From Octopus vulgaris (taxonomy: Eukaryota): a stretch of DNA of 64,000 nucleotides. The number at the start of each line of letters is the position of its first letter. Position 1 is the first letter of the stretch. This document shows, piece after piece, positions 12,249 to 18,762 of this stretch. A program made the position numbers and the translations under genes. A model generated the notes under the pieces. The model saw only the letters and a list, made by a program, of their open reading frames with translations. It ran no database searches and was not told the origin of the DNA. Location of the stretch: NCBI GenBank assembly GCA_951406725.2, contig OX597825.1, positions 87,482,001 through 87,546,000 on the forward strand, in the 5' to 3' direction.

Positions 12249-13667
12249 CTGCTATTGCAGCTTGTGATCACATTGGGTGCGGTAGTCGTGAAAGTGGTGG
12301 TGGTTACGACTTGTGTTGCAAACTGTGTTGTTTCAGGTGATACCTTCTTCCATGGCCTTCGTACTAAATATTTTGTCGGTGGTGGTGACGGTGATGCTCA
12401 CAAGTGTCACTAGCGTGTAACATGTCGCTAGCCTCTGCCATACGCAAGTCACAGAGGACGATAGAGATAGTGTTGGTGCCGTTGCTGTTATGTTCATCTG
12501 CTTAAAGAGAATGCTGGTGGCGTCGACGATGTTGTCGTTGCCACTGTATTCTGTGGATTTTCTCAGTTTCTTTAAATATTTAATTGGATGTAATAGGCGT
12601 AGTAAACATGTCATCACAGGAATTGGAGCGTTGAAAGCGGTTTCAATTTCGACAAATACGGGGAAGAATGACAAGTCAAACATTTCGCTTGGTCCAAACA
12701 TTTGAACCTAAATGAGAACATGTGGAAGTTTCGCAAATGAGAATTCAAGAGGAATAATTTGAATGTCAAAGACATTTTGGAGATTCAACAATGCTATAAA
12801 ACCATTGTAATGCATCTATCAATGTAGAGTCTGGTGGTGCGTCTAGAATTAGGCGCTACTCGCAGAAACAGATCGCACGTGCATTTGCAGACAGGGCCCT
12901 CATTATAGTTCAGATTTGCTTTAAGTTTTCTGTTTAAGAATCGTCGATAGCAGAATTGGTAGAACCGGGCCTTATTCAGTGTTATAGTCAGTCATGTGTG
13001 TCTCTCTCCATCTTCTGAGTCATGCGGAGTTGACTCAATAATTTTCATCCGTCCAGTGTCAATAGCATCAAAGTGCTGATGTTGAATAAGTTATTCATAA
13101 ATATGTGCCATCGACCCTGTAGAATAAAACTAGGTTTGCTGTAATACTGTTGGCTGATTTAAAAAGTGAAATTCTTAGGTGCGAATGTTTATGTCGAACA
13201 TAGGAAATGTTAATCTTTTCTGCGGTTTCTTTATTTATTCATGAAAAATCGAATCAAAGTATGGATTCATGGATTTCCTACATAGATTTAATATCTAAAT
13301 ATAATTAGAAAGATTTCTTCGGCAAAAGCTTATTTTGTAGAATAAAGCTTGTAACACACATAATTTAGCCGTTCTTCCTGGTGAGATGTCTTTTTAAGTA
13401 GCCTGGAGATGAAAGTCGGCACATGGAAGATTAGCGTCTATATATATATATATATATATATATATATATATATATATATATATATATATATATATATATA
13501 TATATATATATACATATATATATATATATATATATTAATAAAAAGAATTCCAACCTTGTCTGATTTTCACGTTTTATTTACAATCTTATAATGATATATT
13601 ATAAGATAATATATTATAATTGAATAAAATAAAATGAAATAGTAGAATGTTAAATATTCATTCTGAT

Positions 13668-13712
13668 TGAACTAGTACTTTCATGCATTGAATTCTGCAA
13701 TCTTCGGGTTCA
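13668..13712 (-). ncRNA. Mirror copy of the minimal hammerhead ribozyme (left arm)
   Basis: Reverse complement of 18554-18598. Confidence 0.8.
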
Positions 13713-14206
13713 TGTAGTAGTGTTGACAGTCATGCTTCACAATTTTTGACTGTAGCAAGATGAGTGATTCTGTGCTATAAATACAGCTGGGTAGGCTCCA
13801 GAGTGCTAGGTTTTGCAAACTGTATTCTGACCAATCAGTGTGTAGTATCACTCAATTACTTAAGCTGATTGGTTGGTTGAGCTGATTGGTTTAGGCATCA
13901 CGCTTTGTTGGACAGGTCAAGAGTCCTGTATCTTGACCCTGGCCGAAGCAGCAATTGTTGGGTTATTTTTAGAAATGTTGTAAATATCCTTTGTCAGAGA
14001 TTTTTATATTTTTATATTTCAATTGTCATCATCATCATTGTCAGCACCTTAATTATTATTGCTAGTGGTGATGGTGGTGGCAATAGAACTTTTAACCCTA
14101 AATAAGATAATTTTCCTGCTATCTTCGTCTTGATCACCTTTAGTATTGTTGTTGTTGTTAGTGGTCATGGTCGTAGCAGTGGAAGTAATACCTCTAAGTA
14201 TTATTA

Positions 14207-16123
14207 TTATTGCTTATTTAGCTTGGGTTCTGAATTTATCAATAAAATTCTTTTCTCTGATTTTCCTCTCGATTTCACTTGGGCTGTGTAATTTGTAGAA
14301 TGGAAATATTATATATATGTTCCGACCACATGTTGCTAGGTGGTTACTCAAAGGTATCTGACGGACCTCTGGGTCTCTAATCTGTTGCCGGTGTACACGT
14401 GAGCGTTCTAATAGTGCAGTTTCCCGTCTGACCTACATATATTTCTTCACAATTTGGGCATTTGATGCAGTAAATTAAATTTCTGCTTTTGCAGTTCATA
14501 TTCGCGTTTGTGAATATTTTCCCGGTTTTTGTGTTTATATATTGACCGGTATGTATGAATTGGCATGTGCCACATCGGCTATCATTGCATTTAGATACCG
14601 TGAATGTTTGGTCTTTGTTGCTGAGGTCAAATTTTGCCTTTGTTAGTAATGTTTTCAAGTTTTTAGGCTGTCTTTTACTAAGCACCATAGCTCGATCCTT
14701 GATTATGTCTTTTAATTCATTACTTTGGGCAATGATTGGTAGGTTTGCTTTGGCAATGTTGAAGATATTCTGGTGACATGGGTTGTGTGTCACTATGAAT
14801 GGTATGACTTGTTCTTGTTTTCCTCTTCCTTGGCTTGTCCTAAGTTGTTGTATAGGTATTTTTATAGCCCGCTGTATGCCATTTTCTATAAGTAGAGATG
14901 GGTATTTTTGTTTGAGCAAAAATTCTATTAGTTCTATTAGGCGTTTGTTCCTGATATTTGCATCTTCTACAATAGTACAAATTCTTCTGCTAGGCAGTAT
15001 GGGATGTTACGTTTTGTATGTGGTGGATGGCACGACTTAAAATTTAGGTATTGATGTGTGTCTGTGTGTTTATAGTATATATATGTGGTGATGGTGGTGT
15101 CTTTTTTAATTACCATTATATCCAGGAATGGTAATTTGGTACTACTCATCTCCTTTGTAAATTTGAGAGATGGGTGTAGGTTGTTCAGGAGGATATTGAA
15201 CTCTTCCAGAGTATTTAGAGATTCTGTCCAGATTATGAAACAGTCGTCTAGGTATCTCTTCCATGCCTTTTCAATATACTTTCTAAGTCCAGTGCCATAG
15301 TTTACCTCCACCTCTTGGTAGAGTTGTTCTTCTAAGTATCCCATTACAGAGTTGGCGTAAACGGGAGCAAACCTCGTTCCCATCGCCGTGCCTCTAATTT
15401 GGATGTAATTCTTTCCATTGAAGAAGAATGTGTTATTTTCTAGAATAAGTTTGACTGTGTCTAATATAAATGGCACTGTGAATCTGCTGGGAATCACTTC
15501 TCTATGTTTTTCTAACCAGTATTTAATCGCCTTTATTCCTAAATCGTGTGGAATATTGGTGTAGAGGCTTACCACATCAAAACTTAGTAAAACTGAATTT
15601 GTTTCTGTTGTTTTGGGAAGATGGGACAGGAAGTCGATGTCATCCCTGATGAAACTTGGTATGTAAGTACATAGTGGTTTCAAAACAATGTCAATAAAAT
15701 TGCTTAGACGGTGTGTAGGGCATGCTGGACCAGCTATAATAGGTCTAAGTTTTAGGTCTTTTGGATGTAATAATTTTATGTACTCACTTTCTTGTTCTTT
15801 TACTGCCTGTTGAATGTTTTTTGATTTGTGTATTTTTGGTAAGCCGTAGAAGTTGCTGGGTTTTGGTTCAAAATTGGTGATGTAGTCTTTTTCATTATCC
15901 GTAAGTGAGTTGTGGTGTGTTGAAATCAGGTTGTTGATCTTTTTCATGATGTGGTGGTCTATATTTGCGGGTATTTCACAATAGAAGGTTGTATCCTTCA
16001 GTTGGTCTTCAACCAAATCCTTATAGTATTCGGTATCCATAATAACAATTGCACCACCTTTATCTGCTTGTTTAATTATTATTGTTTGATCGTTTTGTAT
16101 ACGTTTACATGCAGACATCTCTG
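14207..16123 (-). pseudogene. PLE RT + GIY-YIG ORF (left arm), with its own indels at ~14989, ~14418 and ~14231
   Basis: Track ORFs 14967..16142 and 14377..14919 encode nearly the same protein as the right arm but break at different positions. Confidence 0.95.
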
Positions 16124-16128
16124 TTAGG

Positions 16129-18059: not shown

Positions 18060-18376
18060 TAATAATACTTAGAGGTATTACTTCCACTGCTACGACCATG
18101 ACCACTAACAACAACAACAATACTAAAGGTGATCAAGACGAAGATAGCAGGAAAATTATCTTATTTAGGGTTAAAAGTTCTATTGCCACCACCATCACCA
18201 CTAGCAATAATAATTAAGGTGCTGACAATGATGATGATGACAATTGAAATATAAAAATATAAAAATCTCTGACAAAGGATATTTACAACATTTCTAAAAA
18301 TAACCCAACAATTGCTGCTTCGGCCAGGGTCAAGATACAGGACTCTTGACCTGTCCAACAAAGCGTGATGCCTAAA

Positions 18377-18490
18377 CCAATCAGCTCAACCAACCAATCA
18401 GCTTAAGTAATTGAGTGATACTACACACTGATTGGTCAGAATACAGTTTGCAAAACCTAGCACTCTGGAGCCTACCCAGCTGTATTTATA
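18377..18490 (+). promoter_or_regulatory. Putative PLE pseudo-LTR promoter (3 CCAAT boxes + TATA-like); mirror copy at ~13776-13889
   Basis: Seen: CCAATCAG at 18377 and 18394, CTGATTGG at 18428, TATTTATA at 18483, ~65 nt before the hammerhead. Function is inferred. Confidence 0.55.
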
Positions 18491-18553
18491 GCACAGAATC
18501 ACTCATCTTGCTACAGTCAAAAATTGTGAAGCATGACTGTCAACACTACTACA

Positions 18554-18598
18554 TGAACCCGAAGATTGCAGAATTCAATGCATGAAAGTACTAGTTCA
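18554..18598 (+). ncRNA. Minimal type I hammerhead ribozyme in the PLE 3' region
   Basis: Seen: stem I TGAAC/GTTCA, core CCGAAGA (variant of CUGANGA), stem II TGCA/TGCA, GAAA, palindromic GTAC, TA cleavage site. Known: PLE pseudo-LTRs carry minimal hammerheads with palindromic stem III. Confidence 0.8.
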
Positions 18599-18762
18599 AT
18601 CAGAATGAATATTTAACATTCTACTATTTCATTTTATTTTATTCAATTATAATATATTATCTTATAATATATCATTATAAGATTGTAAATAAAACGTGAA
18701 AATCAGACAAGGTTGGAATTCTTTTTATTAATATATTCTTCTATACACAATCACACACACCC

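Follow-up and report, generated by a model that had tools for sequence, protein, structure and literature searches.

The closest described systems to the locus considered here are the inverted insertions of EN+ Penelope-like elements (PLEs). In these, two copies lie head to head, an arrangement called abundant in PMC3846280, where self-priming was proposed as the explanation of the short palindromes observed at inverted junctions. The same source treats the PLE tail as optional on one of the inverted repeats. This tail is a 30-40-bp extension, often present at one end only, and has been explained by endonuclease resolution of an intermediate (PMC8557442). Partial tandems and (TA)n targets also belong to the published picture (PMC3846280, PMC8557442). 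Within the class, the Neptune clade is defined by a CX2-5CxxC linker ahead of a GIY-YIG domain bearing CCHH, and ORF1 may be frameshifted in certain PLE types according to the legend to Fig. 1 of PMC8557442. Enzymatic activities have been described in vitro for Poseidon of Anolis carolinensis: the purified protein, predicted to be a dimer, acts on an AT-rich target, where it cleaves both strands and extends them, and reverse transcription begins at two sites delimiting the tail (PMC11167929).

The locus analysed here lies in a 64,000-nucleotide stretch of Octopus vulgaris DNA (the window, within which all coordinates are given). Self-BLAST of the window reveals a single long inverted match at 13435-18832, formed by two element copies of ~2.6 kb each whose 3' ends face outward, with an offset of 23 nt between their 5' ends (Table 1). 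Together with alignment of the arms, this confirms the mirrored, near-identical arms and (TA)n flanks reported in a preliminary description made from the sequence alone. Both insertion ends lie in (TA)n, a repeat that would mask any target-site duplication, and the DNA beyond the TA repeats is neither mirrored nor duplicated. In searches of the assembly, the left flank has 1 match and is single-copy; the right flank is matched once in full and once by a 74% fragment, and was judged single-copy. The same flank searches found neither an empty allele nor a second haplotype in the assembly. Each arm includes RT followed by GIY-YIG coding sequence. Three one-base indels break the reading frame of the left arm; in the right arm, a one-base deletion near 17346 puts RT and endonuclease out of frame with each other. 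At the junction, the two arms have in common a 2-nt microhomology (TG, 16122-16123). Over about 2.59 kb they are distinguished by 2 substitutions and 4 one-base indels, and the innermost 196 pairs counted outward from the stem are all matched. There is only one arm-specific substitution per arm, a scarcity that indicates a young insertion. Rfam matches over the palindrome are all of the hairpin microRNA type and under their gathering scores, and were dismissed as products of the palindromic structure and the TA repeats.

Table 1. Features of the palindrome locus (positions within the window)
Feature	Coordinates	Strand	Remarks
Left part of (TA)n target microsatellite	13439..13529	.	unique DNA outside
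Left arm, 5'-truncated element	13530..16123	minus	unit positions 1679-4271; tail-less
Hammerhead-like motif, mirror copy	13666..13713	minus	
Right arm, 5'-truncated element	16122..18736	plus	unit positions 1656-4271
Perfect 14-bp palindrome	16122..16135	.	at the axis
Spacer of 21 nt	16124..16144	plus	sequence of the right arm only
RT coding frame, right arm	16124..17382	plus	DKG and YLDD motifs; 5'-truncated
Five substitutions common to both arms	16981..18208	plus	16981, 17342, 17434, 17948, 18208; unlike family majority
Linker and C-terminal GIY-YIG endonuclease	17262..18059	plus	CX4CxxC motif in linker; CCHH residues in endonuclease
Unit position 4048	18513..18517	plus	recurrent 5' end among short head-to-head copies
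Hammerhead-like motif	18553..18600	plus	
PLE tail of 44 bp	18737..18780	plus	start of next tandem unit; right arm only
Right part of (TA)n target microsatellite	18781..19017	.	unique DNA outside

The element belongs to a family whose 4,271-bp tandem unit was taken from a natural copy, L049, in tandem arrays. The same period is found in L049, L081, L084 and others, and is absent from the palindrome locus itself; tandem and partial-tandem pseudo-LTR copies are a PLE feature that the family thus displays. In the L049 unit, RT and endonuclease occupy one 775-aa frame, which in the full unit is overlapped by a 430-aa upstream frame in -1 relation. In the right arm, the Pfam RVT_1 domain scores just below its curated cut-off (E 1.4e-06, 28.6 bits versus 29.6) and GIY-YIG scores above its own (E 5.8e-06). 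The RT carries the PLE-type motifs DKG and YLDD, the latter of the YxDD form. Residue 650 of the 775-aa frame marks the linker CNDSRCGTC (CX4CxxC, within the range CX2-5CxxC), and the translation displays the CCHH residues of the GIY-YIG domain as a CxxC inside the motif and two downstream histidines. These motifs and Pfam scores bear out the original identification of a Penelope-like element, which appears Neptune-like by the motif definitions of PMC8557442, a linker motif being known from Nematis as well. The family shares with the Neptune clade, as described there, the C-terminal GIY-YIG domain, the CX4CxxC linker, CCHH and a hammerhead-like motif in the 3' repeat, but has two overlapping frames and a hammerhead core that is off at one base. 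Stems I and II of this motif fold; its core reads CCGAAGA in place of CUGANGA, it folds no better than shuffled sequences (z 0.12) and it has no Rfam hammerhead match. A TATA-like motif located 30 nt upstream of unit position 4048, together with CCAAT motifs, points to this position as a putative transcription start.

The family is young and adds a member to a class already known. Exact matches to a 29-base word close to the 3' end number 1,595 in the 2.8-Gb assembly; there are 262 for a word around unit 1710, and 200 and 158 for the two alleles at unit 2214. Many copies (hundreds) are about 99.5% or more identical. Head-to-head insertions were collected systematically from the first 100 of the 1,595 3'-end matches (contig C1 up to 147 Mb), which form 72 clusters. 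Pairs of neighbours no more than 10 kb apart comprise 19 in head-to-head, 1 in tail-to-tail and 8 in same-direction orientation. That mirroring over the whole inserted length is unusual, as had been considered, is not supported by these 19 head-to-head pairs, several of which reach 6-8 kb. A larger set was assembled from the 19 pairs, the best DNA matches, the lists obtained with the unit-2214 words and the carriers of rare variants. After removal of 14 loci duplicating larger fetches it comprises 77 loci (the palindrome locus included) and 49 head-to-head junctions, which, having been gathered by several routes, are not a random sample. The scan for head-to-head copies with other truncation points suggested in the preliminary description has thus yielded 48 further junctions. 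The preliminary description expected so long a palindrome to be unstable, but long palindromes of the family are numerous in the assembly. Several insertions (L048, L062 and L063; 7.6-8.1 kb) are longer than the palindrome locus; L050, a near-perfect sister palindrome, measures 4.5 kb, its arms being offset by 26 nt.

The two ends of the palindromic insertion are not equivalent. Positions 18737-18780 match unit bases 1-44 at 43/44, and nothing on the left side mirrors them. The insertion consequently reaches about 18780: the extent first proposed, 13530..18736, holds for the arms but stops short of the true end of the insertion because the 44-bp tail was missed. This asymmetry is general. Exactly one tail is present in 48/48 head-to-head insertions with both outer ends visible (the palindrome locus and 47 others, from the 49 junctions), and none has two or zero; one-direction insertions are tailed in 13 of the 28 cases listed and tail-less in 15.

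At the palindrome locus the tail sits on the longer arm. This is the arrangement expected if a cDNA primed at the tail site had halted at a quasi-palindrome, snapped back (here with a loop of 21 nt) and been copied on itself as far as the 3' end of the element, the copy then joining the TA repeat. In such a fold-back, the first cDNA holds the loop and is thus the longer arm, and its copy cannot gain a tail, so that a tail on the shorter arm could not be made in this way. However, the shorter arm carries the tail in 29 of the 44 unequal pairs (4 further pairs are equal), including the closest sister, L050. The expectation that the shorter arm adds nothing to the longer one holds at the palindrome locus and fails in these 29 pairs. 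Four of the five other simple junctions with an offset of 1-50 nt have a tailed shorter arm (L031, L034, L043 and L050, the exception being L033), which implies that near-perfect palindromes arise in the family without copy-back. Fold-back would therefore require a second mechanism obeying the same one-tail rule.

The sequence at the axis bears on the same question. The family has there a native 12-of-14 quasi-palindrome, which is made perfect by a single change, A>T at 16131, carried by 1/32 arms spanning the site and likely to have been templated. Such an axis suits snap-back of a cDNA end, as does the preference of 5' ends for native quasi-palindromes (11/95 versus 3.9 expected in a post hoc count excluding the palindrome locus). 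On the other hand, one arm of L024 ends at unit 1656, the same base as the right arm of the palindrome, while its partner ends at 3669: the same stop site has been used without copy-back. Together with the preference for quasi-palindromes, this marks the axis as a preferred cDNA stop site, where the quasi-palindrome could serve for snap-back or could supply the homology between two cDNA ends. An apparent overlap of 1-14 nt occurs at 38/49 junctions, and templated inserts are present at several. In L040-L042, three zero-offset junctions have a 5-nt self-complementary overlap with a central mismatch, which fits the annealing of two cDNA ends; a hairpin version needs a 1-nt loop. L053 shows a short snap-back.

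The offsets between the 5' ends of the two arms range widely, from 26 to 1,715 nt in 13 long pairs. An offset within 50 nt is found in 1/13 long pairs versus 0.6 expected by shuffling. Near-symmetric junctions number 3/34 versus 0.97 expected (P=0.07), and 9/19 versus 5.4 expected in the systematic set (P=0.01, partly owing to the hot spot at 4048). An excess of near-symmetric long palindromes was rejected as not significant.

None of the five substitutions common to both arms occurs in the other 40-48 arms of the initial sample at these positions. The 17342 variant is found genome-wide only in the two palindrome arms, and no source copy carrying it was found in the assembly. The 16981 variant has 5 other matches in the assembly, none with another variant of the palindrome locus, and the 18208 variant has 2, both in old diverged copies. 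Both arms derive from one source element, and the earlier view of a single recent insertion event is supported by these shared substitutions, of which that at 17342 occurs nowhere else. Shared variants would also be produced by fold-back. They were nevertheless rejected as proof of it, since units of same-direction tandems share private variants too (L081, L083, L084, L085, L037 and L053): sharing reveals one template source and cannot separate the models. The original proposition that the structure implies copy-back through a hairpin is thus not upheld, whether judged by the shorter-arm tails or by the shared variants, and fold-back is a doubtful, though tenable, origin for this particular palindrome.

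A two-step history was also considered, in which two separate insertions occurred at one site, or an ordinary insertion underwent mirroring or homogenisation afterwards through host repair and gene conversion. Gene conversion between arms is possible in long palindromes and could have made the arms alike. Moreover, in L054 and L065 the arms differ at variants that are found at other loci as well, indicating that two templates can meet at one insertion site. However, independent insertions would give neither 19 head-to-head against 1 tail-to-tail neighbours nor one tail in every one of 48 pairs, and mirroring by the host would have duplicated flanking DNA, none of which is duplicated. Such a history appears highly improbable.

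An error of assembly or reading, in which a fold-back read chimera or a misjoin made or homogenised the second arm, would also account for near-identical arms. The 4 one-base indels between them exceed the 0.31 expected from other young copies (P=3e-4), which suggests a poor local consensus and casts some doubt on the local sequence at the base level; mis-assigned reads could, in addition, spread variants across both arms. The junction is present in none of the public contigs compared. At 15500-16750, contigs of four public runs (Logan) follow the natural continuation of the family without the palindrome joint, and at 16900-18300 the matches listed agree with the family majority at the five sites shared by the arms. 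Because rare forms are lost from contigs and the runs could come from other individuals, the comparisons in both regions are no evidence either way. In spite of the indels, internal evidence makes it unlikely that the whole structure is an artefact: the mirror ends where the element itself ends, the known tail is one-sided, the flanks are unique and unlike each other, and the same architecture recurs with other break points at 48 other junctions. Furthermore, 2 distinct substitutions are retained between the arms. Overall, an artefactual origin is given very little probability.

The palindrome is probably best explained by a single recent insertion into a TA repeat in which separate cDNAs were primed at both cut ends and joined head to head. 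In this scheme both strands of the target DNA would be cut, and each cut end would prime its own cDNA on RNA from one source element, presumably a single RNA molecule and not two from the same locus; cutting and extension of both strands are known in vitro from another PLE, Poseidon (PMC11167929). Priming would use two start sites separated by 26-46 bases. The two truncated cDNAs would then be joined through short homologies by end joining, possibly by host machinery, which fits the overlaps at 38/49 junctions. Priming at two start sites would account both for the one-tail rule and for its independence from arm length. The near-symmetry observed here probably arose because both cDNAs halted close to the native quasi-palindrome, a preferred stop.

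A related process is twin priming of LINE-1, in which both target strands prime cDNA and joining by microhomology leads to an inversion. Because the second primer of L1 is internal, the two cDNAs copy separate portions of the RNA, and there is no duplication of the 3' end. In contrast, both arms of the octopus palindrome begin at the 3' end and overlap throughout. The cutting and extension of both strands by the Poseidon protein concern another clade, the accessible text of that report offers no model of inverted insertions (PMC11167929), and the link to head-to-head arms is ours. No published twin-priming proposal for PLEs was found in a search of titles and abstract openings, most subscription journals being outside its range, and the available part of a bioRxiv paper on retrozymes (10.64898/2026.07.22.740005) adds nothing on inversions.

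Several observations at the palindrome locus count against twin priming or are neutral to it. The longer-arm tail, the 21-nt spacer and the micro-hairpin axis with its perfecting change suit fold-back equally. The mild excess of near-symmetry, the L053 snap-back, the five rare variants shared by the arms and the lack of a 17342 source copy are to be counted on the same side.

It is conceivable, though this wider proposal is a tentative one, that PLEs insert by obligate two-site twin priming. A protein dimer would prime both cut ends on one RNA at the sites bounding the tail, the cDNAs would overlap fully by means of strand displacement, and near-perfect palindromes of kilobase size would arise when both stop together.

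Compared with the published inversions of EN+ PLEs, the octopus locus is likewise head-to-head, with a short junction palindrome, a tail at one end, partial tandems in the family and (TA)n targets. It differs in that the inverted copy (2.6 kb) nearly equals the direct one in length, and its tail is of 44 bp against the 30-40 bp described; the one-tail rule has here been counted, at 48/48 (PMC3846280, PMC8557442). The arrangement itself is already published in these two papers, and the locus is an unusually long and tidy case of a known PLE habit, not a new phenomenon. The family as a whole includes hundreds of copies with >99.5% identity, tandem sources that are intact and a large number of inverted junctions, and constitutes a natural data set on the formation of inverted repeats and tails by PLEs. 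The one-tail rule and the shorter-arm tails provide a direct argument against simple self-priming, together with a prediction that is open to testing in the existing in vitro system. If obligate twin priming proved true, an active family of this kind would continually seed the genome with multi-kilobase palindromes.

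Head-to-head copies of this young Neptune-like Penelope-like family include insertions that exceed the 5.2-kb window palindrome in length or come near it in symmetry, namely L048, L062 and L063 (7.6-8.1 kb) and L050 (4.5 kb), all in the same assembly. Many short head-to-head copies (L032-L034, L040-L043 and L045) stop at positions 4048-4054 of the 4,271-bp unit and make mini-palindromes with zero spacer; the corresponding unit position lies at 18513 in the window. A TATA-like motif lies 30 nt upstream of these ends, which are probably the product of run-off at the RNA 5' end.

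Across the family, 5' truncation points cluster at the native 14-nt quasi-palindromes of the element; the 14-bp palindrome at the axis of the window copy (16122-16135) may be compared. With the window excluded, 11 of 95 truncation points fall at such sites where 3.9 are expected (P ~0.0015), in a test designed once the data were known and with alignment ends that are possibly biased at quasi-palindromes.

At the L032, L033, L062, L068 and L069 junctions, 6-33 nt are inserted between the arms. These inserts are apparently copies of neighbouring element sequence, and they look like scars of polymerase-theta end joining. In L054, L065 and L053, the arms differ from one another at variants that recur elsewhere in the genome or are shared by the two tandem units of a single arm, a hint that two templates were used in some insertions. 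L065 is also rich in indels and may be poorly assembled. The window palindrome itself carries four one-base indels (14231, 14418, 14990 and 17346), where the rate in other young copies would predict 0.31; either the sequencing erred where the DNA can form a hairpin, or the mutagenesis is genuine.

BLAST of the smaller, older window palindromes against the family found no relation; the first listed may be another head-to-head retroelement stub.

Smaller, older palindromes of the window (arm identity 77-93%)
Window position	Setting
63344-63715	between TA repeats
39898-40145	
4519-4739	
5176-5231	

The full element, read from L049, holds an upstream frame of ~430 aa (unit 68-1357) overlapping the reverse transcriptase-endonuclease frame (unit 1267-3591), and both begin 5' of the part retained in the window. 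Between unit 69 and 1679 there is no sign of an intron, one contig from public run X1 (RNA by guess) being colinear there by offset. The two frames stand in a -1 relation across a seven-T run. Since the overlap sequence is unchanged in 54 of the 55 copies spanning it, a programmed -1 frameshift between them is plausible.
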